Assembly: GCA_963662715.1 (NCBI GenBank)
Contig: OY759724.1
Location: 1,080,001 to 1,112,000 of the forward strand
DNA: 32,000 bases
Direction of reading: 5' to 3'
From: Candidatus Omnitrophota bacterium
GTDB lineage: Bacteria > Omnitrophota > Gorgyraeia > Zapsychrales > JANLHA01
Shown: positions 9,001 through 30,000 of the stretch, piece by piece
Layout of the letters: each line of letters begins with the position of its first letter
Position numbering within the stretch: position 1 is the first letter of the stretch
Position numbers and translations under genes: made by a program
The notes under the pieces: model-generated
What the model saw: the letters and a program-made list of their open reading frames with translations, nothing else
The model's database searches: none
What the model was told of the DNA's origin: nothing

Positions 9001-12000
9001 TAAACCGGTATTTCTGAAGCATCCGTTGATTAACAGTATTGTATCTCTCTTTGTCTGCCGTCTGTAAGACCTTGGAACGTATAACAGCAGCAATATGCGT
9101 TTGTCCGAAATAATTCGCCAGGAAAGCGTCCACATGACAGGCTTTCAGGCTCAAATACTGCAGATGCTCTTGCTGTTCTTGAGATAAAGTTTTTAACCCA
9201 TGATAATATTTCAATATTTCAATAATACGAGCCCACCGTAAAAACAATACTGGAGAATATTTATGGAGATCATCCTGTTTCAGGAAAAACTTAATATATT
9301 CAGGAACATATTCTTTGTCGGTGATGACCCCTCTCGGCATGGGAGGATCGTAAGGAACATTCATCCATTTGCGATAATGTGTCAACCATTCCAAAACAAG
9401 CTCTCCTTCTTCCCGGCCAAAAGTTTTTCTTATCGCCTCCTTATGTTTCCTCGTTAAAGAATCAGAATCAGCTAATAATATCCATGCCGCCCCGACCACC
9501 AACGGGGGAACAGTCCAGCCCCGGAGCCGGTAGACCATGCCTTTAGAGACAGATACATCGGCAGAAGACAGAAGATGTTCCTGCTGAAAATCCACGGCCA
9601 ATGAATGCCCTTGCTGACTCATCCAGTCATATCCTTTTTCCCTCACCGGGCTGTTCACACAGGTATTCTCTTCCCGACTATTTTCATTTCCCGCAAGGGT
9701 CTTAACCGGTGAGCTGCTGTTTGTATCGGCCGGACCCACGTTCAGCCGCTTTAGGGCCGCTTCAATATGCTTTGGCTGAAAGACCTTGACAGCCGGGTAT
9801 ATTTTCTGAAGAAGCCCGCCGACCCTGGCCCAGTCGGAAAGATCCCGTAAATATGACCGCATGTCGGACAATCCGGCCGGCTCCAATCTTCTTAAAGCAC
9901 ATAACCTCAGGGGCCGGTCAATATTGGCCTCAGCAAGAACCTGTAGTATATCTTCACGGCTGCGGGCCAACCTCAATCCCTGCTCCTGCAAAGCACCAAA
10001 AATCCAGGAAACCATCAGATCGCCCTCGGCAATACGAATATCCTTAACGATACACCCGGTTTTCTGCCAAAGACGGATCAGCTGAATAGCCAACTCTTCT
10101 GATATAAAATCATAAAGAGGTTCCAGCGCCGTAATGGGAAGGCCTCCTTCTAACAGGCCCCAGAAACATGCGGCATCATTCTCCACGGGATCTGCTTCTC
10201 CTCTGGAGTGGACGAAAGCCTGGCTCAGATCAAACAGGCTTTTGCCAAGGTATAAACCTTCATAACCCTCAAGATATTCGGAAAGATAAACAGGATACGT
10301 GCGTGTCTGTTTATTGAAAGTTCCCCGGACATGAGCGAAAGACAAAGGTGCCGGAAAAATATCCGTGTGCGTGTTGACCGCCTGCAGGTTCTTAAATTCT
10401 GACGGCACGCTCAACACGGCATTCTTTTCTTCAAGCCAATGGTTGTCAACGGTCATGATCCAACGGACCATCTGATTTTTCATATATACTTCCACGCTGA
10501 ATATTCCGGCTGATCCCGGCTTCTCCGGTTCACTGCTCTTGCCGGATAACAGCGGGCGGACATTTATTAGTTTAATATCTGACAAATAATATGATCCCGG
10601 GAGAACCTCAATGGCCCGCTCAAGCAGGTCCGTTTGAGTGAAGGCATTTTGTATCAGTTCCTTATATAACGCCAGCGTATGGGCCATAAAATATTCTATC
10701 TGCTCCAGACTCATGATTTGATCAAAAGGACGGTTATAATAGGCAAACGCCTCCAAGGCTCTCGTATCAATCCGAACGTTCACCGGAGAACTAGACACAA
10801 GCATATTTTGGAGATGTCTTTTTGCAATAATGACTTCAACAACCAGTCCTTTATCGTCGCCCATTCTTTGCGTACGGTCAAAAGGAGTCACAACAGCGCC
10901 GATGCGGTAGGCATGCGTTAACATGATGGCGTTCCCTTCTCCCCGTCCGCCAAAAAACGGATAGGGGCAGGCATTCTTTTCGTCTGTCTTGAAAGCTGCG
11001 TTAAAGGAAGCCCCGTTGGAAATAAGCCGCAGGAGGATATCCCGGCCTTGTTCTTCCACATAGAAATCCACTCTCAAAGGCCGGTCATATGTTCCCGATT
11101 CATAAACCCGCTGTAAATATAAATCCATCATATTCTCAACCGTATGAGCCAGTACCTGCTCCAAAGAAGCGACAAAGGGACGATATAGTACCAAATCAAC
11201 TTTATCCCGGGAACTGCCGATCAAAGCAAATAATGTGTCGAGCAGCGGAACGGTCACATTTTGTTTAAACAGTTCAAGAGAAATCCTGTAGACCAGCTCC
11301 TGTTTCGCGTCGGAGTTCTTGCTGCGGACGATAGGCAGCAATTCCTGCAAATCTTCGTATGACAGTTCCAGACGACATAGTCTTGCTGCAGACGAACCTT
11401 CCCGGTTGACCGGGCTGCTGGAAGGATTATTTTTCTTAAGCGTTTCCCGTTTATTGATATTAAGAGACGAGCCGTTCTCTGATGACGCATTTACGCTCAG
11501 GGACTCTTTTGTCCGCCGGAACAACTCATCGACCGCACCCGGGGCAGACGGCTCAACGCCTTTAAGAAAACGGATGGACCGGACAAGATAGGCCGCCCAT
11601 TTCTCTGATAATTCTTCCGGATCATGATCGGTAAACCGGACCTTGGTACATTTAAAGAAATCATCCTCAAATACTCTTTCAGCAAGATCCTGATCAACGA
11701 CCCGGACAATAAATTCGTCTAACACTTTTTCATAATCACGCAGTTTTCGTCCTGCCAGATATTCAGATTCGAGCAGTGACCGAGTGGAAGATAACGACGT
11801 AAAATAGATCAAGGCATTAACGAGCAATTTAGCGCCGTTGACCACATCATTGCGCACTATTGCAAAAGGATACGGCGGGACCCTCCGGGGCAGGGAAGGA
11901 TGTCCTACTCCGGGCTTGAGCTTTTGCGGGTCATAAACATTACGGCGGAGAAATTCCGCTAACCGTTCTTCCTGTTCTTTTTCCGTGAAGGACGCCTGCT

Positions 12001-15000
12001 TGGTAATGAGGATACGGGAAAGATCCGCACCTTTAGAAAAATCACGCTGCACAACAGGGTGCTCCTCCACGGTTCTCCTCGGGACAAGGATCTGAACGCC
12101 GAGCTTGGCATGGAAATCGTCATTGGCCGACTCAAACAGGTAATAATGAGATCCAAAAATTTCCCTGGAGACCAGGTCCGAAAGAACGGTCATCGTTCCT
12201 CCGATGCCCTGATAGCCTTTGGAATCAGGATAGAACAATCCGGCATTGCGGTAACGGACCTGCACCCAGAGGGCCGGGGCTATGGCAAATACATTATGAC
12301 CAACGCTCCATTGCCCCGAACGATGTTCTGCCTCGGCAGACGCAAGACTTTCCCGGCGGATTTCCGGATATGTTTTCATAAGGTCTTCATCGCTGCAAGA
12401 ACTCTCATCCAGGAATGTCACGAGACCCCGCTCTGTTTCGGTCGTGAAGGTCTCTTTTTCGTCCGTTACGATAATCCGGTCGGCTCTTCCCACAAACTGA
12501 TCCTGCTCCGCGTCATGGCTGATATCAAAAACATCAATAACAAACGCTCTATAAGGCTGAAAGCCTAATTTTTCCGGGCCAAATTTGGGCAAAGCCGCCG
12601 TCGTCCCTGTCCGAAGCCGGAACACCAATTTATGTTCCTCATCCACCCGGTACACAGCGTGGCCCCGTGTTAAGAATCCCTCTCCGTCAAATCTTTTCCT
12701 GCCCTGCCCCTTAATAGGATCTTCCGCGTTTCCAGTGACAGGCGAACTGGCGGGGTTCCGGATGAAATACACATCCGTTTCCAAGCGCCGAACATCCATG
12801 CGGGCTTGGCCGATCTTCGCCCCAGGCCGATAGGCTCCCGCCGATTTAAAGGTTTCCATAATAATGTCAACGTTATTTAAACCTCCCGAATGCAGCCAGC
12901 GGACAGGCTGCCAGACAAGGGCCTGTCCGCCCGGGTTCAAGACAAGAGGTAAGGCCCGGGCAAAACGTCTCAGGGTCCGGCCGTTCGCATCTCCGTCCCA
13001 GAGGGAATGACCGTGTTTCAGTCCATCGGATTCCGACACGTTCAGATCCAATTGCTGCATGTTCCACAAGACAAAATCAAACCTCCGATCCTGGAATCTT
13101 AAACGGCCGTCAGGAGTCATAATATTGTCTCCGATGACAGCCTCAAGCCCGAAACCGTTGTTATTCGCCACCGTGCGCACATTCGCCACTTCCATAGGGT
13201 TCAGGCCTATCGCATAAATGATCTCGCGTGTTTTGCGGGAAACAGCCCAGGCATCAATTCCGCTGCCCGGACCGACCACCAGCACCCGGCTCCACGGCTG
13301 AATGGGCAGCTGTTCAATCAAAGCGTGATAATACCGCATATCTGTTTCAAAAACCACTCTGGCCCCCGGAGTGTAAACAGTCGGTGCGACCGGAAGGAAT
13401 GTTCTATGGATAAACCGTTTCTCCGGACGGGACATCCACCGCCGGACGTACGTCCTTTCGAATTCCTGCCAGTTCTTCTTAAAGAGAAGGTCAGGCATTT
13501 CTTCGGACACCCGCCAACGGATATTTCCGGGGGTGGTTTCCATCAAAGCAAAGACATACGGGGAGCAGATAAATTTGGATGCATACCCCTGGCTGACGTC
13601 CATCGCTCCCTGGTAATTTTCCTCGGCATATTCTTCAATAATCTTCTGGTCATAACCGCGTCCGGCGATAGACTGATGCCAGGCAAAAAGTCCTTCAAGA
13701 TCATCAAGCCGCGGCACCGGGATATTGAAATGACTCAAGTTGAAATAATTCCATGATTTTAAAACAGACGCGAAATCTTGCCCTGTCCGGGATATTTGTC
13801 CTTTGACTTTCCGGGTCATAGCAGGAAAGACGGCAATCAGCTGATCATTGTTGTTAAAAATCAGATCAAAATCTGTTAAGTCCTCTCCGTTGACATGGCC
13901 CAAGTGATGCTGCAGGACATCTAACCCGACCGGCGCCCGGCTCGTATCTTTCCTTCGCGAGATACGGATTCTCTGGATTCTCGCTCCGAATTTTCGTTCG
14001 CTCCACATAATCTTATAAGCCCTAGCTCCCGGGGACGCGTTCAGGCCAAGGACGTTCATTATCTCTGCTGTAAGGGTTGTTTTGGCGTCCGCCTGGATGA
14101 CGGGGGAGCTGTTCCCGCTTAGAGAAGTGCGCGCGCTTGAACGCGGAGCTGTCTTTTCTATGATTTCCTCAACAAGGCTTTCCCAGATATAGATACGATC
14201 TTTATCGAGGACTCTGTTTAATCTTCTTTCATTGAGCCATTCCACAAACATAGAATCAAACACATGTTCCTCCAAATCCGTACGGCCCCGGTCGCCGGAC
14301 TGAAAAGCATCCATGACCCGGCTAATCTGCGCTATAGACCGTGTAACCGCCCGGGCACCATACCGGTGCATGATCCAGTCCAGCGTAGAACAATATCGGC
14401 CATGCACATCCTCATAACGCTCCACCCGAATCCTGTCCCGATAATTTTCGTCAAACTGCCCGAAGGTCGGATCAATCCCTAACACCGGAATAGTCTGATA
14501 ATAAAAGACAATCACATAATGTGTTTTGAATTTGTCCCGAAAAATCATCCTTTCCAGGACAAAAGACGTCTCTTGCCTGTCGCCGAACCGCACTTCTAAT
14601 ATTTGTGCAAGAACCTGCCCCAGGATATAACCGAATTCCCGGCAGAGATGATCCCCTTTGCTCCGCCATTCCGGCAGGCCTTGTTTTATAACCTGCCAGA
14701 TCTCTCTCTCATATAATCCGAGATAACCGTGTATCCCTGTCTTTAGACGGCTGAAATGCTCATTATCGACCAGATCCAAATCATAGGTGACCGGGCTGGA
14801 GGAGACAATTTCTTTCCCGGGAGATTGTCTCTCTGAAACTTTTTGGACCGGACTGGATGCTTCAGGATCATCATTCCTGTTTTCAAAAGATTCCATTTCT
14901 TTCAAAATACGCATATCATATTCATGAACCTTATGCATAAGCAGTTGATGAAGCTGCAAAAATTTCATGTCCATCCCCGGGAGAGGAATCACAGGCAAGA

Positions 15001-18000
15001 ACATCAAAGCCCCTAAAATCTGGCTGAATCGGGCCGGGCCTTTAATCCTGATCCGCTCGAAAAGATCATTTATTATTTCTTCTTCCGGGACGTCCGGGGT
15101 AAAAACAAAACAGGCGGCAAGATACAAACTTATCGCCTGGCTCATTCCGGGGGTTATCTCCAAGGAACTCGTCAGCCGCGACCTTAGGTTTTCCTGTATC
15201 CCGCTTGCCTTGATCTGTCCTCCGTTTATCAAAATCTTTTCGTAAGCCAATAACTGAATAAAAGTATAAAGGCTTCTTAAGAAAGCTTCCGATCTGGCCC
15301 GGCCCTCCGGCGTAGATGTCTCAACGGTCCAGTCGACCTGGAAGATCAAAGCATCAATGATAAAATCGATATTGTACTGCGGATGAATCATGTAAAGCTC
15401 TATTAAGGCTTTAAGGTCGCCGCGCCTTAACTGCTCCCCGATAATCCTTGGGGCGATCAGGGGTTCCAGTTCAGAAAAGGCTTCGCCGATATCCCATCTC
15501 AACCGATTCAGCTTGGGGATCGCCTTTGATTCAAGCATTAAAGCTTCTATGATGTCTCTGATCCTGTTGATGCCTTTTTTAACATCCTCCATGATGTCAG
15601 ACAGCTTTTCGTTTCCTAGTATCTCCTGAACAGCCTGCTTGGAAATCCCATTGCTCAGCATCTCTCCCGGTAAGTTCCGTTCGGATCTATAGAGCTCAAA
15701 CAGACCGTCCAGGGCATTATAAACAGACCAGAATATAACAAAGGCGTTCACATGTTCAGGCAATCTCTCTTCCGGCCATTGATACTGGCTGATAACCGAT
15801 GTGCGGAGGAACGCTTCCAAAAGCATCGACCGGTCTCCGGCATATTCCATGGCTTGTTGCGGACGCACCCGATACAAGGAATAATCAATGACCCAGCCTC
15901 TTTGGGAGGCTTTGGATCCGGTAATCGTTGCCCCGGCATAAGGATCGACAAAACGGTAAGGATTAAATTTCAACTTCTCCGCTTTCCCTTGCCCGAGGGC
16001 CCATGTCGTCAGTTCACAGCACGAGTTGATTGTATTCATAAGTTTTCTCGCCGTATCAACGGCCGGGTGAATAAGAATCAGGGTCGCGTTTAAGTTCATG
16101 CCGGCTCCGAGGATGATGCGCGCGGCATTCTTATTGGTCGCGGCCCCTCCCCGCATTTTCTTATCCATATCTTTTAGCACGTCATCGTCATAAGATTCAT
16201 GCCCCATCAGCACCATGCCCATACGTAAATCTCTATAAAGAATTTCCGCCAACTCTGGATGACGGTCAATGTTATCCGACCGCATTAATGCGAAAGTAAC
16301 GATTCCGGATTCCTGGAACTCCCCGTTCTCCCGGGCGAGAGCGGCCAGTTCCCTGTTCCTTTCCGGCCGAAGGTTGAAGTTATCGTCATTAAAGAATATG
16401 GCGCCTAAACGCGGAGCAAAATTCCTTATGATATTCAGCAACACCCTCATACCGTCTTCCGCCGGCAAGAGTGAAATCTTCGGTTTAATGCCCAAGACCC
16501 CCAAGGCTTGCGTCTCTTCCGCCGTAAGGTTCCGATAAGCATCCGGAAGCTGGTTGGTCGATGAACAGAAGTCACAGCCCATCGGGCATTCTGTCTCAAA
16601 ATAAACCCTCACGGTTCTGACGAATTTGTCATGGCCGGTGGCTTCCAAATGCTCCAATCCGTAATAATTTTCAATATACTGCCAATATTCTTCGTAAGGG
16701 ACATTGATCGAATCATGCATCAAGGTGACAAGTCGTAAATCATCCAGCTGATAGTAAATGACGCCCCTGGCTTCCTGCACGGCCCCGGATTCACTCCGGG
16801 TAAAGACGCCTCTTATCCGGGCAAAATCACGAATACGATTTTCTGACCGCCGGAGAGCCAGCGCCATTTCAAGCATAGGATACTCGCCCCATCCCGAGAT
16901 GACGGCGTCAACGGGCGCCTCCCGGATCAGCTTCTGACGGTTGAATTGCGCGCCCTGTCCTCCGGCGATAATAACCGTATCAGGCGACAGATTCTTAATC
17001 TTGAGCAACTGTTTAAGATCTTGCGGCAACGTTTGATCAAGCATACTGAACCCGATCATATCGTAATGGTTCTCCGTGACTATCTGCTCCAGATCATGGC
17101 GGCCTTGCAGTATTCTTAAACTGGCATCATAGACGTCGACTTCAAAACCAAAAACTTTGAGGAATGAAGCGATACGATACAGTCCGAAAGGCGGCGCCAG
17201 GAACTGTCCGGGCCGTAACTGCGGATTCGTCGGCCCGACCAAAAGAATTCTCGGCAACCCGGACAACGGAAGGCTATCATTAAAACATAAGCCTTTACCG
17301 GACGCCAGCCGGTCAAGGCGCCCGATTATAACCGCTTTACTTATGTTCAGGAAAGATAGCCCGCCCAGGACAGGATGCGCCACCAGACGTTTAATATGGT
17401 CTTTCGTCGGATCACCAAGACTTCGCGCCTCTTCTGTAAGCTGTAAGACATGTCTCTCTTCTTTCTGATCAACAAACGGCTGGTCAACGCTGAGCAGTTT
17501 AATATAGAGATACCGGGCGGGAGTTGACAAATAATTAAAACGGCTTTTCAGAGTTATTTCATCCAGCGCTCTAAACAGCTGCGCTTTTTCGTCACGGGTC
17601 ATACGCGCAAGATAAAGGTCAATCTCATCCCGCTGCAGCACGGATCCGGTGCCGGACCTTAATGTCCCCGTGGCATCTAAAGATATCGCGCCCGATCTGA
17701 CTCTGTCATTGACACGCTTTACGAATTCCGGAGATTCTGCCGGGGAAACGGCAATGTCCTGATACAGGGCTTTTACCTCCTCGGTCAAAGCGGCCCGGGA
17801 AGAATTCTTGTTTAAATATGCCGGTTCGAAAACAATGAGCCTCAATTCAAATATCTCGATGGCCGCGGCAACCTCTTTCCCTAAGAACCTGGAGCCGGCG
17901 GCAGGTCTGCGGGCAAAATACAGCCCTTCCGACGTCAACAATAAATTATAGCTCATATCATGCGCATGAGCTTCCTGAATAGCCTGAGACAGCCATCGTG

Positions 18001-21000
18001 ACGTTTCGGAAGCGTGTCCCTGTATTTTCAGATTCTCCGACGGCCATGCCGGGACATGAGAGATCCTCAGGCCTGTTCCCTGGTATAGCGTATTCTGACG
18101 TTGCCCTGCCATCTGGACGGCCTTTTTCTGCCTGCCATAATACCCCTGAAAATGCAGGTGTCTCTGGGAGTTCCCGGCATTATCAGCATTAAAATAAATA
18201 TTGAAATGCGGAAGTCGCTGCTGGATTTCGAGAATATCTTCCATATCCTCCCTCGTTATTTCCTGGAAGCGATGGATCAGTCTGCCGGCATGATCCAGAG
18301 GCACAATAACAATATGGAACTGTTCATAAGCGATCCTGTTGGTCCATATTTCCCACTGCCGTCCGCTGTTCAGCCGCATCGTAACAAGTTTTTGTCTGTC
18401 CCTGACGGCAGAATCACATAACGGGCACTTTACCTGCCGGGCCTGTTTTTCCCGTTCCGTTTTCTTCGTTTCTTTCGTTCGCTCCTCGTGATAACGCAAA
18501 GCAAACCTCAGCCCTCCGGCCTTAAGTTTTCTCTGCTGGAATTCCGAAGGCATAACTTCGATCAAGCCCCTGGATCTTCTCTCCTCCCACGCCCGGAGAA
18601 GGGCTCTCTCTTCTTCATTCATGATCAGATTCGCATAATAATACCCGAGGACATACGCTATCCGGTTCATCACATTCTTAAGGAATCTCCCGGCAGTCCT
18701 TTTACGAACCGGGCTGCTGACCGACGGCGCCCGGGCCGTCCTGCTGCTGTCCATCATCACCGGGCTGTTGGCAACAGAATCCCGGGTCCTGGCTTCCGGC
18801 TGAATCATGTCCGTGGAGTAGGCAGAAGCCCCCGCCGAGCCGGCAGAACTTTCTTCCTGGCTCTGTGGCTGTGCCGGTGATTTATATCCCCGATCAGCAA
18901 AATATTGCACAAAAACGGCCTCCCCGGCTTTGGCAAGAACATCAAGGAATGTGACAAAGCGGTCAGTTTGATCTTCATAAGTGAGGAGCTGATCAATAGG
19001 AAAGATATGAATATAAAGCACAAATTTCCCGCGTTCTTTTCTTAGCCGCATCCAGGAATCTTCTGTCCTGCTAAAATCGGATGTCACCTTCACAGAAAAG
19101 CTCTCAACCGGAAGCTTTGCGATACGGACTGTTATCTGTTCATATAATTTTTGCAACGCGTCTGTCTGAGACGGGGATAAAGGTCCGTTATCCCTGGCTT
19201 TCCAGACAGGCTGGCCGCCTGTAAAATCCAGTTCCCCGTATAAAGGATTGTCCCGGTATTTCTGTTCATAGATTCTTTTGGTCTCGTTAAAAGGCTTGAA
19301 CATAAACAAACGGTCGTCTTCCTTCGCTGTTTCCGGGGCCTCTTTGCTGACCTCATTTTTGATAATTTCAAAATGGAGGGCACCAAAACCAACAACGATC
19401 GGCACTTGAGGCTCCTGCGCCTGGACCGCCAAAACAGACCGCGCCATGGCGACACTTCTTGCGTCATTGATTTCGTCAAGCCTCGACAAAGTTATTCCGT
19501 TGATGTTATACATAAGTTTCCGGGCCGCTTCTCTTAACTCAGGGGAATCCAGTCCGACAATCTCGATATTCCGGTGGGACATATCATTGTCCATATCGAA
19601 ATAGATGTAATTCACCGGCAGATAGAATAAGAGAAACACTTCTTTTGCTGTTGCCGCAGGTCTCCGGACATTCTTTCTCTTCATAATACGTAAAATGGAA
19701 TTGTACCGCTCTTTGGCCAGTATGGTGGACCTGACCCATTCTGTAGTATCAAATTCATTCCCGTAAATCACTTTCGGATATTGTGCGGATAAGGCCTTAA
19801 CCTGCTCAACAATCTGTTTGTAACGGTTAATGACAGGACGGTAAGAAGCCAAAAGCCTGTTAACTCTTGCCTGGTATACTTCATCAGAAACATTGGCATT
19901 CAGCAGCTGCTTCATCATAATCTGGGTGAACCATAAATCAGTATGTTCATAGCCCCTTAAATAAACCGTTCCGATCCGGGCGTCAGGGTTAACATCCATT
20001 GCCTCTCTTAACTCAACAACAGCCTTTTCAACAGACCTGAGATATTGAACTTCATCATGATGTTGCTTGATGCTTTGAACAAAGGAAGCACAGCCCGACA
20101 AGAAAACGAGCTGCGGAAGGAGGATAAAAAAGATTAAAATCATCCGGAATATTCCGGGGGCCCGGGCGCCGTTGATACGGAACATTTTGGCCATACGCTT
20201 AATTTTTCGGACGAACCAGGTTTCTCTTTTAGAGGCCTCCGGCGGCCGGATAGGAGATCGGCGATCTGGGCGTACGGAATGAACTCCGGCCCGCCAGTGA
20301 CCGGCAGACTCATCCTGCCATATCCCCGCATCATCTGGATGGGTCTGCGGAGCAGAAGGATTGACCGGGGAGCTTGCCTGATTGGAGTCATCAGCTTTGT
20401 GGTTACGTTGTATTTCGGCCAAGGCCTTTTCCAGGGTCTCTTCAATAGCCGGCGGGTCATAAGAAATCACCCTCTTGAGTTTTTCAACCGAGAAAACCCT
20501 TCCTGTTCCGACGTCAGGCTGTGTCATGCCTTGTTCTTCCCGGGACAGAAGGTTGGCCTTCCGGCCTAGACGTGATTCCAGGAAAGAAAGCAGTTCCTGC
20601 AAAGAATATTTCGTTCCGGTCCCGACATTAAAGACCTCGGACAAATCCAGGTTTTGCTCCTGGGCCCAGAGCACAAGCCGGACCATGGCCTCCGCGGCAT
20701 CATCAACATAAATAAAATTGTAAGTGTCCGACGGGTTGGAAACAGTGATCGGCAGGCCCCGCAAGAGATTGACCGTAAACTTGCTGAAAACATCCAAAGG
20801 ATAAACTTCATGATGATGTGAGAAAAATTTGGGAATCGTGTTCGATAACCGGGCAATAATATACGGGCCGCCATATCTCTGGACAATCTTTTCCCCCCAG
20901 TATTTGCTTAAATCATAGGAACTCTCCGCCGGCTCAGCAGCCACCGTCTCGTTGATATAAACGCCGGGCTGTCTTCCATAAACACGCACGCTTGAGACAT

Positions 21001-24000
21001 AAAGAACGAGCGGCTGCTTTTGCCGTTCTTCCCGATATCCTTCCAGAGCACGAAGCAGGCTGTAAAGACCCAGCATGTTGACCTCCAAACTATCGAGTTT
21101 CTTTTCACGGGTTTTAACAATATCGGAAAGCCAGATAATGGCGTCCGGCTCCGAATCAAAGACCGCGTCCCTCACCTGCTGATCGTTTCTGACGTCAAGT
21201 TTGACAACTTTCGTTTTGAGGCCTTCTTGCGTCCCGTTAAAACCGGAGATTCCCGATAAACCTGTGACGATGATCTCCCGGACCTGCGGCATCAGTTCGC
21301 TGATTTTTCTATACAACGATCTTCCGATAAAACCGGTTCCCCCGATCAGCAGGACTTTTTTGACCGGGTGAACTTTTGACGGTGCCGGTTCCGTTATTTT
21401 TTCACGCTCTCCTAATAACGGGGCCTCGGTCAAAAATTCCAAAAATTTTCTCGCAAGCTGCGTTTGAACCTCATAACCGCAGCGGGCATAAAGTTCAATC
21501 ATCCTGCCCGTTCCCGCCGCCAAAGCCTGGCGGCCTTTCAGCGTCCGCATCGCAGCCGGGCTCATCATCTGACCTATTCTCTGAGGAAACTGCGCTGTTG
21601 ACACGACGTCTTTCATTGAAGCCTGCAGGGACTCTTTATCCTCCTGATACCATGTCCATAAGAATTCCATGAACTCATTGATACGAAACGCCCAGGGGGA
21701 ACAAACCTGGCAATGCCGATCAATTCGCGGATAAGTTTTAAGGAAACTCTGCCAGAGATTTCTTCCTATGACATCAGGATCAACGCCTTGCACAAAATTA
21801 TATAAACTTCCCCCGCCGGAGTACCCGCGATGATCGCACGGGTACATTCGCCCGTTGGGGGCAATAACGCCCGTAAACAGCATGGCCCAGCATTTCTTGG
21901 CTTGGCTCACAAACGGCTTTTGTTCGTGACGGCCGATCCTTTCCATATCATCTGTTCCATGCATGGCAACAACGGAATACTTGTGGTTCGAAAAGCGTTG
22001 AGAAACATCAAACAAGGCTTCCAGGTCACGGAAATGAGAGTTGAGAACTTCCGCGGTCATTAACCCGGTTATATCGAATTTAAACCGCAAAGAATCAACT
22101 CCCAGCTCCTGCATATCGGAGGCCATAGTCAGGATTTCATGAAAATTCTTCCCGGAAATGACAAAGCCCACGTTGATCATGGTGGAGAGCTGCTGCAACC
22201 TTTTCAGGCTGACGAGATCCGCCATGTCGGCCACTATGCCCTGATAATCTAATTTCTGGTTTCTTTTAAGCTTGCGGAAGGTTTCTTCGGAAGCGGCATC
22301 AAGGCTGACATGGACATAATCCAATAAATGCAACACGTCCTTGATTCTGTGCAGTCCCAGCCCGTTCGAGAAAACACCTTTTCTTATAGAAGACGGCAGG
22401 TTCCGAATAAGGGCAGGGATCCTGCGGCCGAAGCTGCCCTCCAGGGGCTCGCCGAACAATCCTGATAATTTGACCAATTTGAGTGCACCGTGATAATGCA
22501 ACTCCTGCACCACGGAAGTATAAATATCAAAAAGCCGGTCACTGATAGAATGATATTCTTTCTGGGTCTGTCTGATTTCCGGTAAAGACAATATCCGCTT
22601 TCCGATACAATGTTCACACCCCATCGAGCAATAAGGGCTCTGGATCTCTAACTCCGTCAATACGTGAGCATATTCGCCTCTTTCCAACGCTTCGAATACC
22701 TGAATGATGGACTCATGCTGTTCAAGCAGGAAATCAAACTCATAGGTAAAAGGAATGCTTCCTTTGCTGAGGTAATCGTAAAGCCGCCGTTCAAATTTCT
22801 TTCTGGCCGCTATTCTTCCTAAATGATTTGACTCGTCTATCGGGGATGAGGCCGGCCCCCTATGATCCTCTATAGATTCTTGATCCTCTGCGTGCTGCCT
22901 TACGGAACTGCTTACGGCCTGAGCGAGCTTCCGGACATCTCTGTCGGATGAAAAATCCCGGGCAAATCTTCTGAATCTCTCTATGCTGCCCTCGGCATGG
23001 ACAAGCTGCCCGGGATAATCAAAAATATTCATCGGAGCATAAGGATGCCTGAAGACAAACCGATAATTCATTTCTTCCAAGAACCGCAAACGCAGTATTT
23101 CTATAATGGCTCGTATCTCTTCCAGGCTGAGTTTATTCCGGACGGTCTCGTTATAGGACCGAACCATGACTTCCAGTTTGTCCCGCCCGTACGGAAGCGG
23201 AGCGGCGATATCATCCCGTCCCAATATTAGATTATTAAACTCGAGCACGCGGATATCCGTCACAGCCATGGCGAAATCTATTATCGCAATAACATGTCCA
23301 TAAACGTTGAAGATGAAATTCCCGACATGCAGGTCATTATGAACCGGAGATTCCGGGAGTCCTTCGGCAGAATAATTGCGGCTGAAAAGCTCGGTCTGCT
23401 TCATGATGAAAGGCTTATACGTAAAGAATAGTTTCTGTCCTGCTTTACTGACCGGGGAATCCCTCTCTATGCCGTGGAAAGCTCTTAAAGATTTCTCCAC
23501 TTCACTAAAAATCTGTTTTCGTGATTTATAGCGCCGTACGCCTTCCGGCTTAAATCCGAACAATACATTATTTATGTGAGCGGCGCTTCTGGCCGTGGCC
23601 TGAAAATCTTCTAAACGGGCATCCTCAAGACGGATCTTTTTCCCGTCTCCCATAAATTCTTCCAGGATATAACGCGCCCCGTCACATTCAACGATATAGT
23701 TCAAGGCCGTATCCTCTGCCGTTCCGGAGACCCGGTAAAGTTCCGGCACGGGCAGCCCGGCACGGTGCAATTCTTTCATAACAGAAACAATAAACCGGGC
23801 CCTTGTCACAGGATCCTGTATCCTTCTTAAGACCTTTTCTTCCTCTTGCGTGATAATCAATACCGGAGGATGCGTGCTTCCGATGCCTCCTGTCAACACC
23901 TTGCTCCCGGCTTTCCCGATTCCGTAATACTTCCTCACAAGCGCTACGGCTTGATCCTGCCCCTGTTCCACCGGCGAACTCGTTATCGGGCTTGGGCCGG

Positions 24001-27000
24001 ATGTCGTTTCATCAGACAGGCTGACCGCCTGGGCGAAGATGTTTTGCTCCTGCTCGCTTAATTCAAAGCTCTTGCCCGGGAGCCACTGGGACAAAAATCG
24101 TGCTTTCCTTAAATGAAGCTGCGCCTGCAAAATGTGCTCGGTAAGACTGCGGAACAAATTGCTTTCAGCCGGCTCATCCTGCTCCAACCCCTCCGCATAT
24201 CGGCTCACAAAAGCGGCCTGGTAAAAAATGGTCCAATACAGGTCCGGATGTCTTTGAACAACATGATACCGGGTGTTCCGGCGGAACTCATTAAAGGTCT
24301 GGCGGAAGGCCTCGGCCCGGCTCATCCCCTCTCCGGTTAAATGACTCGTGACAAAACGCTGGCGGTAATCCTCCATGAAGCGGTTTAATGTTATGGCAAC
24401 GATAACCTTATTTTTCAGGAATTCAAACGCCTCTTGAATTTTATTATGGTCTTGTTGAGTCTTATAAAGTTTGGCCAGCAACGGCTGAACATGTTTCCGG
24501 AAGACAAGAGCTAACACTCCATAATCCGGTTCGGACGGATCAAGATACGCCGGATGCTCAGGATTCAGGAAATCCTGCTCCAGAATCATGCGCGGGAGTT
24601 TATACTGTCTGTACCGCAATGGTTGCAATGCTTTAAAAACCCGGGTCTTAAGGGCATTCTGCCGCCGGCTCACTTCCTGGCGTAACCGGTAAACTCTTGC
24701 ATGATTAAGACCCCGGACAATAGCCCGGCTTTCTTGAATCCTGAGTTCAAGGATCTGTTTTGTGACTTCAAATAATCCCCGGAGTTTAATAAACGCATGA
24801 GGACCTTCATCTAACAGTTGTAAGCTGTGCGTAAGAATGATACGGGCCAGTAATTTTTCTTCTACGAGAACATTTTGCAGTCTGTTTAACTGTTCTAAAA
24901 TAAGCGCCCGGACCCTGTTTGTGTCTTCATGAATGATATCCATCAGACGGTCGAGCAGATGCCTCAGTTCATAAATCCATCTTATTTCATCCAGTTCAGA
25001 ATCAACCATATGATCAACAGCCCGGAAAGCGTCCCATAAACTAGCATAAGTCAAATCACCATAAGTTTTCACGGCTGAAGCATTCCATTGACCGGCTTTT
25101 TCGAACCGCTGTCCGCGCAAATGATATAAGCCGTCTTGCTCTCTTCTTAACCGTTGTGGCGGGGTATGGCGTTCCTGCCGTAAGCGTCGGCTAAGATGGG
25201 TTTCTTTAATTTTATGCAGGGCTATTAATGTAGATGTCATAATCATATTAACGGCCGGCTCGTTATAAACAGCAAGCAAGGCCTGGACGTGATCAAACCG
25301 CTGCAATAAACCTTTCGGCAGGTTCATATCTGCAAAGAATCGAAGCTTGAGCTGAATGTCTTCAGCCACGTCAGCGAGTTCTGCCCGGAAGGGAGTTTCG
25401 TCTGATGCGGCTTTACGCTTTATAGTCAAAATGTAAATACGGAAATTCCAATCAGCGACTTGCAGCGTGACGTCCCCTAAAGCGGCTCGATACTCGAGAC
25501 GGAATTGCTTAAATTGTCTTGAAGCGGCTTTAGAAGCAGATGGGGCTTTCTGATTAAGGTCAATATGAGATATTGTGCGGTCAATAATATAAGAAGGATA
25601 CGCGAGTTTCTTTAATATGTTTCTTAAAATGATCCGGCGTGACCGGGTCCATTGCTCTGATCGCGAAACGGCCCGCTGATAAATTTGAGCTCTCAGGGCC
25701 TGAACATCTTTGGCGGGGGAGAGATCAAGGTCATTTACAAACAGTTCAACTTGTTCTTTTATCTTTTCCGGCGGGCCGTGAATCTTCCCGGACTCCTGCA
25801 GATATTCATAAACAGAGATACGATAGAGAATGTCTTCCAGATTCTTAAACCCTTGCGTAATGTACGGCTCTTCTTTATACCGGGGATGACTGTAACGCTG
25901 CCCGGCCCACCTCATGGATTGCGCGCTGATCGCATGTACAGGGCTGGGCGCCGCTATCGGGGACGCGGACTTCGGCGCGGCTTTGCCCGATTCTTTGGAA
26001 ACCGGCGAGCTGGCGGTATCGTCTGAATTTTCTGACCGTACTTCGTCCCACAATTGTTTAAGCAAATCCCTGTCCGATCTTGATATTTGCTTATAATGTG
26101 CACCCTCTTGATGGAATATATCGTTTAGCGCAGCGGCAAAATCAGCAGCAGGGTTTTTCCGTAGATAATAGCGAATAACATTTTTGAAAGCTTTGCTTCG
26201 TGCCAGCGAACCTAGCTCTCTCTCATACATCTCTCCCTTCTTATTTAATAATAAGGCGTCCAGCTGCCCTTGTTCCCATAGACGACGATACGTGAGTTCA
26301 TAAACTAAACTTAGCTCGATCATTAACTCTGTCTGATCTCTATTAATCACAATTTCATATGTTTTGTCTGCCTTAATCACAGAAAGGGCAAGAGTACGGT
26401 CGGCGCCAAAGGTAGCTCTTGGGAATCCGGCAAAGAAACTATGAGGCAGGGCTATAATCTTTATCTGACCTGCTTTTTCTTCGCTAAAGCCAAAGAAACT
26501 TCTGACTTGTGGGGCGATTTCATTTAAGTTGTGACGAGCTGCTCCTTGGATATGTGTATTAATATAGCTTTTCACCTGGCGCGCTGCAGAATGCTCAATA
26601 TGCGCGCACCCGCCACAGAAGATGAATACTGCAGCAACGATAATAACAAATGGCGGGCTGTGAATGAACCGGGCAATATACCTCCCCAAGCCCGCCATTG
26701 CGCCGGCTGTCCTGTCGATTCTAATCCGCTCGGGTGACTGAACGCCCTTACATGAGGCGGAAATGTTAAAGTTCTTGTTCACCGGAGAACTGGATAAATC
26801 TTTATCCAAGGATGTCCTTGATGAACCGGCCTGCCTCCCTTTATTCAAGGACATGTTAAACCGCTCTTCAAGCATTCTATTCAGTATGGGGTCTTCCAGC
26901 ATGACTCTTATTTTAGCCGCATCGCTGTACACATTGTTTAATCCGGGTTCAACATTTTGACTGAAAGGAGCGGTCATTTTCAGAAGATCTTCAACCGGAG

Positions 27001-30000
27001 CTTCCCTGTTAAGCACAAAAGAAACAAACGGGTTTCTATTTACGGCATCAACTATCGACGTTAAATCCTGATGCTGTATGTTCGCCAAATCAAAGAACTC
27101 GAAAAAGTGACTGTCTATATTAACGGCACCGCCGGGATAAATATCCAAATGATCCCTTGCCGTACTGAGCCTGCTCCCCCTCTCATGGATATCCTCATCA
27201 TACTCCTGCGCATAAAGTTCCGCGCTCAGGTGCCTTGCTTCACCGATAAAACTCAGTAGCCCCCGGCGCACATGCGGCAACCTTAATCCTTTACTTGATA
27301 ATATGTCCTTAAGCTGAATATAGGAAGGATCTTGCCGGACAAAATAATCAAAAACGCTTAACGCGAGCGTAATTTCAAAATGATAGGTATTTTTAACGGC
27401 TTCAATAATGTTGACGATATTACCGATGGGGATGACCGGCTTTCCTGTAGGCCCTTTTTGGCTGAAGACAAACTGATTGACGCTTAGCTGGATAATCAGA
27501 TCTTTATCCCCTGAGCACAGCAAAAGATCCCTTAAAACATTTCTGGTTATCTGCGGTGTTTTTGCCCAGAAACCATTTGTTGCCAGGGTTACGACATTCG
27601 CGTCCACGTGCCTAAGCAACATACGGACCAAATCAGGTTTAAGGAAGGGTTCTCCGCCGGTAATGCCCAAATGACTTATCCCGCCGAAAGTGTTGATCCT
27701 TTCGATAAGCAACATCGCTTCCTCCCTGCTCATCGAAGGCAGCCGTTTAACCCAGTTCGGCCAATAGCAATGCGCACACCGCAAGAGGCACCGAAGAGTG
27801 ACATATACATCCAACGATTTTATGACCGGTGAGCCGGCACGTTTCACTGCCTTTGCAGGGCCGGCCATATATTCTATTGGGCTTGAAGAAGAAGTCTTGG
27901 TTTCTTTTTCTCTGGATTCTTCTCTGGAAGCCAATCTATCACCTGCAATGATTGAAAGTGCCCCTGCTAACAGCGGGCCGGTCACGCCTAAAAATGTTTC
28001 TGCTTTATACAAGCCGTTTGCTTCCCGGCTGTGCATCCTTAATAATTCCCAGACTGTCTGGTCAATGTCCTTGCCGTACAATTGTTCTTCTTTGGCAAGC
28101 CAAACTTCTACGGCCCCTCCCCTGGTCTTTACCACACAAATAGCGCCTATCAGATGAGAATACGCGGCCAAAGGAGTCTTAACTTCTATTATTTCTCCAA
28201 CTTTGAATCTTCGCTTTGCTCTCTCGTTTATTATTTCTCCGACATACGGTCTGGCCATTAAAACAAATATCTTCTCTTTACCAAGAAATGTCTGAGCCGT
28301 ATGTTCAGGCCACATATTGAAAGCCATAATCTCACGGCACACCGTATCAGGATAGGCATTCCAGTTAACAAAAAGTCTCGGGATAATTTTACTTGCCCAT
28401 GCGCCCGGTTTTGTTGCCCCTTTCTGTTTCTTCAATTCAACTTTTCCTTCTGCAATAGCATTTACAGCGCTGACCAAAAGCCCGGCTGACAGAGGCGCAA
28501 GTTTCTCCGTAAGCGTGAAACAGGATTCCGTCAGACTTACTTCTACACCTTTCAATCTTGCAACAACCTCTCCGGTATCCCATCCTTCTTGTATCCTGTG
28601 GATAGTTATGCCTGTCTGTCTTAACCCGAATAAAACAGCGGCATGAACGGGTAAACCACCCCGCAATTGCGGCAACATCGAAGCATGAACATTAATAAAA
28701 TCGAATTTAAATGTTTGGGTAATTTTTCCTGTAATCTTATCGGGCCAAACACAAGTTACGCCAAGGTCCGCGTTTACTGTTTGTAAATATTCAATTAACT
28801 CATCGCTCTTTTCATCAACAAATACTTCGGTCCCATTTTCTTTTGCAATCTTAATGATTTCTTCACTTTCTCTCTTTGTGATTACGCTTACAACTTTAAA
28901 ATTTGCTCCTCTATCCGCAAGCAAAGACTGAAGCGATAAACGGCCAAACAGTGTCCCTTCGCTGAAAAAGACAATATTGAGCCTGCCGTAAGGTTTGGCG
29001 TAACCGGGGTATTCTTTTACCAATCCGGGAACCGGGTTACGAACTGCGGTCAAAAATCTTCCGAAATCAAACTTCTTCATCGGGCTGGAGGCCTTGCCCT
29101 CCGCATTCCTGATAGCGTCCTCAGAAACCGGAGAACTGAGACTATCCTGAGGCAAATTATTTCTTTTTGCCCATTGTTTTATTAAACTTTTCTCTGTATG
29201 TATGGGCAAATTAATAATAAAGACCGTCCCAAAATTTTTCCTGCTTTCTATTCTGAGTTTACCCTCCAGGAAATTCACGACATTCTGAATCTTCGGCAGA
29301 CCGAATCCGAACCCGGATATATTGAACACGCCGGGTTCCGAACTGGTAAACCCAACCAAAAATGCCTTGTCCAGGGCCTCCGCCGACATCCCTATCCCAT
29401 TATCGATTAGCCTCATCACAATTCCGTCTTCTTTTACATAAAGAACACATTCTATACGAAGCGGGATACCGGGCCTTCGGAACCAGATAGCATTCTTAAC
29501 AACTTCATTGCAAACCAGGTCAAACATTCCTGGCTGAGTAAAGAGTTCGGGGACTTCTGTTTTCTTCTCAACTTGGTTAAATGATACGGGCAGCCCTTCG
29601 GACCATAACGCGATGTACTCTGCAATGACCGCGTTCATTTTTTCTTCAAGAGAAACATTGTGTCGCAATATTCCGTAAGGCCTGCCGTTCATAAGCTCAT
29701 TCGCGTGCTCTAACAGCCAGATAATAAAATAGTGAATATCGAACATCTCTTTTAAGATAACCTGCACCTCGTTGCTTGTTCTGCTTTCTCTGCTAAAAGT
29801 CTCCGGGTTAGATATCAACATCCAGAAATCACTTAAACGCTTGTTTTCATCTTCTCTGGAGAAACCGGTGGAATGTCTGGGGAATCGTCTTTTGAAAATC
29901 TTTCCGTATTTGGCAAATGGGTAACTGAACTGTTCGCATAAACCGTTCCCGCTATGCTTATCCAGCTCCTTTAACAAGACATTAAGCCTTGTTACATTGT

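Follow-up and report, generated by a model that had tools for sequence, protein, structure and literature searches.

A 32-kb reading frame from an Omnitrophota bacterium with a recurrent SSP[V/I] linker motif: a candidate bacterial polyprotein

One reading frame and its linker motif

The stretch of DNA analysed here (the window) comprises 32,000 nucleotides of contig OY759724.1 (assembly GCA_963662715.1), from a Candidatus Omnitrophota bacterium. It encodes a series of enzymes in a single giant gene, and the question that this raises is whether the product works as one chain, or is cut into its constituent proteins. Six-frame translation finds no stop among the 10,666 codons of the minus-strand frame that runs through window positions 2-31999. 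The remaining five frames have 314-678 stops each, about 4.7% of codons, and it is therefore impossible for so long an open run to have arisen by chance. The window lies in its entirety within a single larger gene of more than 10,666 codons, and the frame is open at both of its ends. An earlier sequence-only reading had described a single frame of about 16 kb (12890-28984); this is indeed the same frame, but its extent was understated. Residues are numbered such that residue i begins at window position 31999-3(i-1).

The frame has the character of ordinary coding sequence throughout. The order GC1>GC3>GC2 (GC content at the three codon positions) is kept from end to end, and the amino acid composition is like that of an ordinary globular protein, with 0.6% Cys. 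Domains of at least 12 different families are found along the chain (Table 1), none of them dominant, and their catalytic and binding motifs are intact. About 70% of the residues have no match in Pfam, NCBIfam, PHROGs, PADLOC or PDB sequences, searches of these unannotated regions (Pfam up to E 1, and the other four collections) giving weak hints only. A single-sequence AlphaFold2 model for residues 3971-4427 has a mean predicted local distance difference test (pLDDT) score of 39 and is unusable. Neither tandem nor dispersed repeats were found in the frame by self-BLAST and repeat search, and nothing in the window matches Rfam; on these grounds a repeat adhesin and embedded RNA genes were rejected, as was a non-ribosomal peptide or polyketide megasynthase, there being no such domains. 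By its length, tiling and repertoire, the window fits the kind of multi-enzyme giant protein described for Omnitrophota, to which we return below. The sole open reading frames (ORFs) of at least 150 amino acids (aa) outside the giant frame, on the plus strand at 3575-4048 and 12059-12568, are antisense to it and most likely spurious.

No other tetrapeptide in the frame is nearly as over-represented as SSPV, which occurs 20 times where 0.13 occurrences are expected from composition. There are three more copies of the form SSPI, making 23 together against about 0.25 expected. SSP itself occurs 24 times, with Val or Ile following it in all but one of these, which is SSPM. For comparison, 165 unrelated proteins with a total of 55,547 aa contain six such sites. 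All 23 fall outside the domain envelopes (P about 0.001), with flanks whose hydrophilicity far exceeds that of random positions (0 of 20,000 resamples), the linkers being rich in Ser, Pro, Asp, Asn and Lys. A typical site is found 16-25 aa past the end of one domain and 20-100 aa ahead of the next.

SSP[V/I] is a signal at the level of the peptide, not a DNA repeat. Its synonymous codons vary, with Ser encoded by both AGY and TCN, and the conserved nucleotides are exactly the non-synonymous ones, from which it follows that selection acts on the peptide. In the frame there are 23 stretches of DNA that could code for the motif; the two alternative frames of the same strand have 0 and 1, and the opposite strand has two. 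The choice of codon within the motif is nevertheless biased beyond background: AGY encodes the first Ser at 17 of 23 sites, compared with about 33% in the background, and CCG encodes Pro at 18 of 23, where the background is 52%. Shared ancestry of the linkers might account for this, as might a secondary constraint at the nucleotide or translation level. The codon preceding the motif tends to end in CC. The bias also speaks for a quite different explanation, namely that we are dealing with an artefact (an assembly chimera or an untranslated relic) or with a 12-nt recombination or insertion site. A relic is ruled out by the 32 kb free of stops, the uniform coding statistics and the intact catalytic motifs; a DNA-level site is countered by the purely non-synonymous conservation, by the confinement of the motif to the coding frame and by the lack of DNA repeats. 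We find explanations of this type barely credible.

The sites split the chain into at least 24 segments, of which 20 are protein-sized modules and four are short spacers of 15-52 aa. Spacers apart, the segments are 205-1283 aa long with a median near 360 (357, 413, 361, 256, 673, 373, 821, 548, 1283, 226, 450, 439, 205, 355, 950, 272, 795, 473 and 300 aa), and each holds one or two enzymes or else a domain that is not recognisable. Every recognised enzyme has a segment to itself, with two exceptions. These are the module of residues 3055-3875, which has both a radical S-adenosylmethionine (SAM) enzyme, radical SAM 2, and a short-chain dehydrogenase/reductase (SDR), and that of residues 4432-5714, shared by a histidine triad (HIT) domain and a B12-dependent radical SAM enzyme. 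The paired sites around the short spacers (Table 1) resemble small spacer products or redundant sites.

Internal signal-like segments and the fate of the chain

This arrangement suggests a polyprotein that is processed at or near SSP[V/I], a reading to which we give not quite an even chance, and for which we infer cleavage wholly from the sequence. A fuller version of it, in which a bacterial polyprotein would have a punctuation code, with SSP[V/I] as the processing signal in every inter-module linker, the giant gene replacing an operon, and around two dozen enzymes and two lipoproteins being freed, is put forward as possible, and more tentatively. The chain would be cut at or next to the motif, either by an embedded module resembling trypsin and HtrA or by another protease. 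Cutting would free a set of cytoplasmic enzymes, comprising the formyltransferase, three radical SAM enzymes, kinase, SDR, HIT protein, methyltransferase and GNAT acetyltransferase, and also two products starting with lipoprotein-type signals, which would then be exported and anchored to lipid.

The Trypsin_2 module towards the end of the window, in which the triad of His, Asp and GDSGAP is present, is a candidate for the protease. DegP/HtrA-type proteases favour Val or Ile at P1. A conserved junction motif between protein-sized units and an embedded protease, the features by which a polyprotein is recognised, are thus both found. The same features are seen in viral polyproteins, such as those processed by picornavirus 3C, potyvirus NIa and flavivirus NS3, which likewise have one ORF, protein-sized units, a short junction motif and an embedded protease of the trypsin/chymotrypsin fold. 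The likeness is one of a possible way of working and not of descent, and in the present case cleavage is a proposal. Unlike the viral cases, the gene is of bacterial type, judging by its lipobox signals and enzyme families, and it has none of the hallmark proteins of viruses; scanning the unannotated regions for PHROGs yielded essentially nothing, and there was no match in phage or viral collections.

In support of processing, we note the location of the hydrophobic segments. Only two strongly hydrophobic segments (Kyte-Doolittle >2.3) are found in the 10,666 aa, plus a few weak ones. Both have a basic stretch, then a hydrophobic h-region, and then G-C-A. The second is the strongest hydrophobic segment of the frame and the sole match to the PS00013 core. 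By the PROSITE PS00013/PS51257 lipobox rule, [LVI][ASTVI][GAS]C, Cys3970 is a full match, and Cys1798 follows a strong h-region in the variant form C-G-G-C. Both segments start 30-60 aa past an SSPV, with the lipobox Cys 58-91 aa past that SSPV and 31-32 aa from an internal Met. Being internal (Cys at residues 1798 and 3970), both fail the rule that the Cys should be within about 15-35 residues of the start. Two successive signals of N-in/C-out orientation would be incompatible within one uncut chain, and export of everything downstream of a signal would place enzymes dependent on Fe-S clusters, SAM, NAD and ATP outside the cell. Cutting in the linkers would resolve both the topology of the signals and the export of the enzymes. 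It is worth adding that translation of the parts as separate proteins is unsupported, since there is no motif resembling a Shine-Dalgarno (SD) sequence just upstream of the Met codons of the signals, and SD sequences with start codons are not enriched after the sites (8, where 6.9 are expected); separate genes read by internal initiation were rejected on both grounds.

The strongest alternative is that the chain stays uncut, as a membrane-tethered mega-enzyme or scaffold in which SSP[V/I] is a modification tag or a docking motif. Its role might be in O-glycosylation, in phosphorylation by the APH/CotS-like kinase, in modification of the Pro or Val, or in docking, for example to the tetratricopeptide repeat (TPR) segments. 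The motif is indeed a peptide-level one in linkers rich in Ser, Pro, Asp, Asn and Lys, where bacterial O-glycosylation and phosphorylation often take place, and the chain has its own kinase, enzymes of sugar-nucleotide type and TPR segments. In addition, the topology predictions in a preprint treat Omnitrophota giants as intact membrane-anchored chains, though its authors caution that this is predicted and lacks experimental validation. This view nevertheless leaves unexplained both the protein-sized modules and the presence in mid-chain of two lipoprotein signals, in the same orientation, amid cofactor-dependent cytoplasmic enzymes; furthermore, we know of no bacterial glycosylation sequon that SSPV fits. 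We consider an uncut chain rather unlikely.

Several observations weigh against processing of the chain. SSP[V/I] may serve for modification or docking and not for cleavage, as just described. Closest to home, the only clear relative of the window (P0003, described below) ends before the expected SSP[V/I] site. As to the signals, the PS00013 core, taken alone, should turn up 0.43 times by chance, the C-G-G-C lipobox of segment 1 is non-canonical, and after a cut at SSPV the h-regions would be about 40-70 aa from the new N-terminus, which is long for Sec or lipoprotein signals. The Trypsin_2 domain has no significant neighbour in PDB, the best match being 'peptidase Do' at E 1.7. A separate point, which bears on a place among the described Omnitrophota giants, is that the SecA-like, HEAT and glycosyltransferase domains typical of these are absent from the window, and its hydrophobic segments are sparser than the median of 16 transmembrane helices published for giant proteins of at least 10,000 aa (Omnitrophota giant-protein preprint).

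Enzyme modules and the question of a common pathway

The domains identified are collected in Table 1. Profile searches found all of those that the sequence-only reading had listed, where it had placed them and in one frame, and direct reading shows that they keep their catalytic motifs. HATPase_c, Trypsin_2 and a weak Transglut_core domain, and weak P-loop, RelA/SpoT-like, CBM48-like and TPR signals, are additional to that list.

Table 1. Positions of the features of the giant frame in the window and in the translated chain
Feature	Window position	Strand	Residues (aa)	Details
Giant ORF	2-31999	-		Stop-free; uniform codon-position GC; no repeats; no Rfam match
SSP[V/I] sites (23, 12 nt each)	1031-30220	-		First 30209-30220, last 1031-1042
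SSP[V/I] sites 1-12, first residues		-	594, 955, 1372, 1737, 1997, 2674, 3051, 3876, 4428, 5715, 5734, 5964	
SSP[V/I] sites 13-23, first residues		-	6418, 6861, 7070, 7429, 8383, 8439, 8715, 9514, 9991, 10016, 10320	
SSP[V/I] example sites	29126-29137, 26780-26791, 23969-23980, 20363-20374, 18707-18718, 12737-12748, 3449-3460	-		
Paired SSP[V/I] sites	14789-14857, 1943-2029, 6674-6853, 29078-29137	-	5715/5734, 9991/10016, 8383/8439, 955 then SSPM at 971	Around short spacers
HATPase_c (histidine-kinase/HSP90-like ATPase)	29189-29518	-	828-937, module 598-954	Pfam E 1e-12, 48.9 bits
Fmt/ArnA-like formyltransferase, two domains	28091-28981	-	1007-1303, module 959-1371	Formyl_trans_N 9.8e-20, Formyl_trans_C 8.8e-4
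Weaker hydrophobic segment	27938-28003	-	1333-1354	After formyltransferase
Radical SAM 1, EpeE/YydG-like	26858-27823	-	1393-1714	CLLRCAHC at 27767-27790
Lipoprotein-signal-like segment 1	26606-26698	-	1768-1798	MAGLGRYIARFIHSPPFVIIVAAVFIFCGGC followed by AH; C-G-G-C, Cys1798
APH-fold (CotS-like) kinase	23090-23863	-	2713-2970, module 2678-3050	Pfam APH 1.3e-11; TIGR02906 CotS 8.5e-12
Radical SAM 2	21470-22633	-	3123-3510	CSMGCEHC at 22607-22630; TIGR04317 W_rSAM_matur 1e-10 to 3e-17
Extended SDR, NAD-dependent epimerase/dehydratase family	20453-21358	-	3548-3849	Pfam Epimerase 9.6e-26, GDP_Man_Dehyd 4.8e-18
Lipoprotein-signal-like segment 2	20090-20203	-	3933-3970	MAKMFRINGARAPGIFRMILIFFILLPQLVFLSGC followed by AS; canonical L-S-G-C lipobox, Cys3970
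DUF4922, GalT/Ap4A-phosphorylase-like HIT	17975-18544	-	4486-4675	CPLC and HLHFQG; Pfam DUF4922 1.2e-8, Ap4A_phos_N 0.02
Class B (cobalamin-dependent) radical SAM	15998-17197	-	B12-binding 4935-5044 (16868-17197), core 5138-5334	CPMGCDFC at 16565-16588
Class I SAM methyltransferase, HemK2/MTQ2-like	12905-13321	-	6227-6365, module 5968-6417	TIGR00537 6.3e-9, 35.8 bits, cutoff 87
RelA_SpoT-like, weak	8471-8842	-	7720-7843	
P-loop NTPase, weak call	5858-6673	-	Module 8443-8714	Walker A GRVSTGKT
CBM48-like, weak	4721-4972	-	9010-9093	
TPR, weak	4346-4585	-	9139-9218	
Trypsin_2 (S1, HtrA-like) serine peptidase	2663-3160	-	9614-9779, module 9518-9990	Pfam 1.2e-10, 42.7 bits, cutoff 27.6
GNAT acetyltransferase	1232-1432	-	10190-10256, module 10020-10319	Acetyltransf_1 1.1e-4, 22.9 bits, cutoff 20.7
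Transglut_core (papain-like Cys), weak call	530-742	-	10420-10490	6.7e-4, 20.4 bits, cutoff 23

There are exactly three CX3CX2C motifs in the whole frame, and these are precisely where they had been claimed to be. The first belongs to radical SAM 1, whose nearest counterpart, by sequence as well as by predicted fold, is the peptide epimerase EpeE/YydG (PDB 8ai1-8ai6; TIGR04078). TIGR04078 (rSAM_yydG) matches it with E 1.3e-12 over 257 of 309 positions, at 47.8 bits for a cutoff of 300, and its sequence profile run against PDB gave YydG at 1.8e-13. An AlphaFold2 model with pLDDT 76.8 was obtained from a four-sequence alignment with its only clear relatives P0001, P0002 and P0005 (26-35% identity), and a Foldseek search with this model placed EpeE at the top (E 4e-11, template modelling score 0.67-0.71), the next match being viperin (8e-5). 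A defence viperin was rejected, because the pVip matches span only the generic radical SAM core. The module and EpeE/YydG have CX3CX2C, GGE and NGFW in common, a GGE motif being present in both of the non-B12 radical SAM domains. They differ in that identity in the structural alignment is 16-18%, and in that the module has no added conserved Cys. EpeE uses the cysteines of an auxiliary Fe-S cluster and a catalytic H-donor Cys. Radical SAM 1 has four Cys in total, only Cys1495 being beyond the CX3CX2C motif, and there is no further invariant Cys in the family alignment; with one extra and unconserved Cys, it is thus without the auxiliary-cluster ligands and the H-donor Cys of EpeE. The relatives P0005 (L007 9951-12845), P0002 (L003 10001-12151) and P0001 (L008 10001-11224) form with it a small family allied to EpeE/YydG, in which P0005 and P0002 have signal- or lipoprotein-like N-termini, which are odd for radical SAM enzymes.

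Radical SAM 2 combines a match to the W_rSAM_matur family with a weak match to Pfam Radical_SAM (17.8 bits). Its C-terminal extension had been described as rich in Cys, and there are indeed four or five of them (3370, 3388, 3430, 3433 and 3507), but no more than this, and it has no match to a SPASM profile and no sequence neighbour in PDB. In the third enzyme, the B12-binding domain is clear (PF02310, 3.3e-13, 50 bits for a cutoff of 32.1) and CPMGCDFC lies about 95 aa downstream, with a Radical_SAM match that is under cutoff at 23 bits. It is matched by the P-methyltransferase-like NF038361 (1.3e-15) and by BchE, HpnR and PhpK, all below cutoff, the score against the Sden_1168 P-methyltransferase being 57 bits for a cutoff of 575; its nearest relatives are thus P- and C-methyltransferases.

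The resemblance to EpeE/YydG brings in a further reading, in which the radical SAM enzymes, methyltransferase, GNAT and formyltransferase would tailor the giant protein's own peptides, in the manner of ribosomally synthesised and post-translationally modified peptides (RiPPs). Action on the protein itself was an option that the sequence-only reading had also raised. The EpeE/YydG-like enzyme might, for example, epimerise the Val or Ile of SSP[V/I]. In its favour are the position of EpeE/YydG as nearest to radical SAM 1 by profile and fold, and the Val or Ile with which the motif ends, these being the residues that YydG epimerises. Moreover, the B12 radical SAM enzyme matches RiPP C-methyltransferases (4.7e-7), radical SAM 2 matches peptide maturases, and there are protease-type modules in the chain. 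However, radical SAM 1 does not have the auxiliary-cluster ligands and H-donor Cys, the RiPP-family matches are all far below cutoff, and there is no match to a precursor-recognition (RRE) domain. Self-modification of this kind appears very unlikely.

The formyltransferase has the catalytic triad Asn/His/Asp (NVH, DTG), aligning to N108/H110/D146 of E. coli Fmt. Its Formyl_trans_C match is slightly below cutoff (19.9 bits, cutoff 21.1), and it scores 100 bits against TIGR00460, for which the cutoff is 201.5. Loop 1, which recognises tRNA in Fmt, is by eye replaced by a shorter KRESEE stretch, and the PDB alignments begin at Fmt residue 53. The APH-fold kinase has readable HNDLHVGN and IDF motifs. 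The sequence-only reading had called the SDR an epimerase/dehydratase, and the extended SDR motifs are present (GGTGFIG, YDLSK), but it has SSVRVYG in place of the S-T-D-E-V-Y-G of 4,6-dehydratases and therefore no dehydratase Asp-Glu. Its best NCBIfam matches are GalE (2e-16, 59.7 bits, cutoff 262) and RmlB (3e-15, 56 bits, cutoff 365). For the HIT domain, GalT NF003630 matches at about 1e-3 (18 bits, cutoff 769). The methyltransferase is detected by NCBIfam only and not by Pfam; motif I (GPGSG) is present, and motif IV reads NMQQ, not NPPY.

In the remaining modules, the N, G1 (DNGIGM) and G2 (GFGFGL) boxes of HATPase_c can be read, with no clear H-box upstream in the module. Cys10446 of the transglutaminase-like domain lies within ANCLVF. 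The weak P-loop, RelA_SpoT, CBM48 and TPR calls have E values of 0.004-0.08.

It had been proposed that the enzymes make up a set of tailoring enzymes like those of an operon, fused into one polypeptide and perhaps forming a complete pathway. The first part is supported: unrelated enzyme types that are usually in separate genes are fused here, and the fusion is operon-like. Stand-alone relatives of single modules include P0001, a radical SAM protein of 407 aa, and ordinary formyltransferases of about 310 aa. That they form a single complete pathway is unproven. Subfamily assignment, suggested at the time, found the motifs in place, but no domain reached a curated NCBIfam equivalog cutoff, all being far below, and the nearest relatives are of mixed type. 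Those of the SDR (GalE/RmlB-like), HIT domain (GalT-like) and formyltransferase (Fmt/ArnA-like) are of sugar type, and those of radical SAM 1 (EpeE/YydG-like), radical SAM 2 (maturase-like), the kinase (CotS-like), the methyltransferase (HemK2-like), GNAT and the transglutaminase-like and trypsin-like domains are of peptide or protein type. The stand-alone relatives of radical SAM 1 and the fusion protein P0119 (see below) have no gene neighbourhood in common.

Could the enzymes of window positions 12890-28984 nevertheless constitute one pathway for tailoring a nucleoside diphosphate (NDP)-sugar or glycan, a proposal compatible with processing of the chain? An anomeric kinase would be followed by the HIT nucleotidyltransferase, then by the SDR, and then by formylation and C- or O-methylation. 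A GalT-like HIT domain with HxHxQ is present, GalE and RmlB are the top matches of the SDR, and the formyltransferase is Fmt/ArnA-like. Anomeric sugar kinases of the APH fold exist, and aminoglycoside pathways include B12 radical SAM C-methyltransferases that have sugars as substrates. Omnitrophota giants have a published sugar-metabolism module, and mild support comes from P0119, which fuses a ROK kinase with a formyltransferase and an APH domain and is encoded beside the gene for a DegT aminotransferase. As in NDP-sugar clusters and in ArnA (formyltransferase plus SDR), both of the latter domains are in one chain, with an Fmt/ArnA-type C-domain and a GalT-like HIT nearby. In contrast to ArnA, they are about 2,200 aa apart and in different modules, and the ArnA match is weak (5e-17, 61 bits, cutoff 777). 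A sugar pathway would require a 4,6-dehydratase, an aminotransferase and a glycosyltransferase. No aminotransferase (Aminotran, DegT) or glycosyltransferase (Glycos_transf) profile matches anywhere in the window, which leaves a sugar N-formyltransferase with no source of amine. Also against the proposal are the failure of every domain to reach an equivalog cutoff, the missing Asp-Glu of the SDR, and the nearest relatives of radical SAM 1 (a peptide epimerase), the kinase (CotS) and the methyltransferase (a protein-Gln methyltransferase). We regard such a pathway as improbable. A single demonstrated pathway is not supported, and the enzyme set is best seen, on sequence comparison, as a toolbox of group-transfer and radical enzymes that are expressed together, and in which sugar-nucleotide and peptide types are mixed.

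Relatives, known giant proteins and implications

An exhaustive HMMER search with residues 800-1999 against 1.84 billion representatives found no giant protein, and none matching more than one module. The closest relative, P0003, is a fragment of 239 aa with 47% identity, encoded on the 718-bp contig BARV01035041.1 (L002; assembly GCA_001682535.1), which presumably comes from a marine-sediment metagenome. It takes in the C-domain that ends the formyltransferase and, directly after this, a transmembrane segment whose place matches that of the weaker hydrophobic stretch in the window. It probably represents part of another, related giant gene. A scan of genome contigs for relatives gave only one unrelated formyltransferase, 27% identical, and a scan of viral contigs and a phage megablast gave no match. 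Of two metagenome scans, one gave nothing, and the other three ordinary low-GC loci with no long ORFs. A homologous-protein search with queries of 5000 and 701 aa gave no match, its word index seeming too coarse for this sequence; in the same search the family profile of radical SAM 1 found generic radical SAM proteins only, and did not recover the known relatives. P0119 (L009 10001-14758, 1585 aa, Logan SRR6487839) has a ROK-type kinase, formyltransferase and APH-like kinase, directly downstream of the DegT-type aminotransferase gene, and is a smaller, distant analogue of the combination of formyltransferase and kinase in the window.

The proteins most similar in kind are the giants of Omnitrophota. 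In the 'Archaeovorins', HATPase_c, Radical_SAM, methyltransferases and peptidases are among the commonest domains, and cleavage was proposed, the cleavage points being stated as not known (West-Roberts et al., 2023, bioRxiv 10.1101/2023.11.21.568195). The class 1 'multi-enzyme metabolic clusters' contain methyltransferase, HATPase_c, GNAT, radical SAM, HIT and kinase domains, and when giants of 10,000 aa or more are clustered, 80% of the clusters are sequence singletons (Nielsen & Lui, 2026, bioRxiv 10.64898/2026.06.07.730766). Like them, the window has an ORF of more than 10,000 aa in which many enzyme Pfams are tiled, with none dominant; HATPase_c, Radical_SAM, methyltransferase, GNAT, HIT, kinases and peptidases are common to both, and both are mostly dark matter. 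The window differs in having no NUDIX, C39 or S8 domain, in addition to lacking SecA-like, HEAT and glycosyltransferase domains, and in having far fewer hydrophobic segments; here the gene continues beyond both ends, with its N-terminus outside the window. A recurrent linker motif is mentioned in neither preprint, nor are lipoprotein signals, and in one of the two the calling of internal signal peptides is deliberately suppressed.

Very long chains with many unrelated enzymatic domains are also reported from phages and conjugative elements, in the form of the polyvalent proteins that Iyer and co-workers are said to have described in 2017, some of which reportedly have peptidases thought to process them. 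The repertoire here is different, with no DNA-directed domains (methylases, helicases, primases, ParB), and a phage polyvalent protein was rejected on the basis of essentially no PHROG or meaningful PADLOC matches.

The enzyme content of the window is diverse, yet taken alone it is in line with published giant proteins, and this kind of object is already known from preprints. SSPV in the present sense was not found in the searchable literature, nor was any description of a punctuated bacterial polyprotein; as far as that literature shows, the strict linker tag and the internal lipoprotein-type signals appear to be undescribed.

Do bacterial giants, with lengths from 10,000 to over 100,000 aa, work uncut, or as the products of cleavage? 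The window provides a concrete candidate here, in the form of 23 linker tags that divide the chain between enzymes and internal lipoprotein signals that make sense only if the chain is divided. Should cleavage not be confirmed, SSP[V/I] would still be an unusually strict linker signal in need of explanation. If the proposal of a processed polyprotein is true, giant ORFs could be divided by computer into their working parts, it would be clear how cofactor-dependent cytoplasmic enzymes and exported parts come to share one gene, and a cellular genome would be seen to use a polyprotein strategy like that of viruses. Tags of this or a comparable sort, if they also mark off the modules of other giant genes, would provide the cleavage map that bacterial giant proteins now lack.

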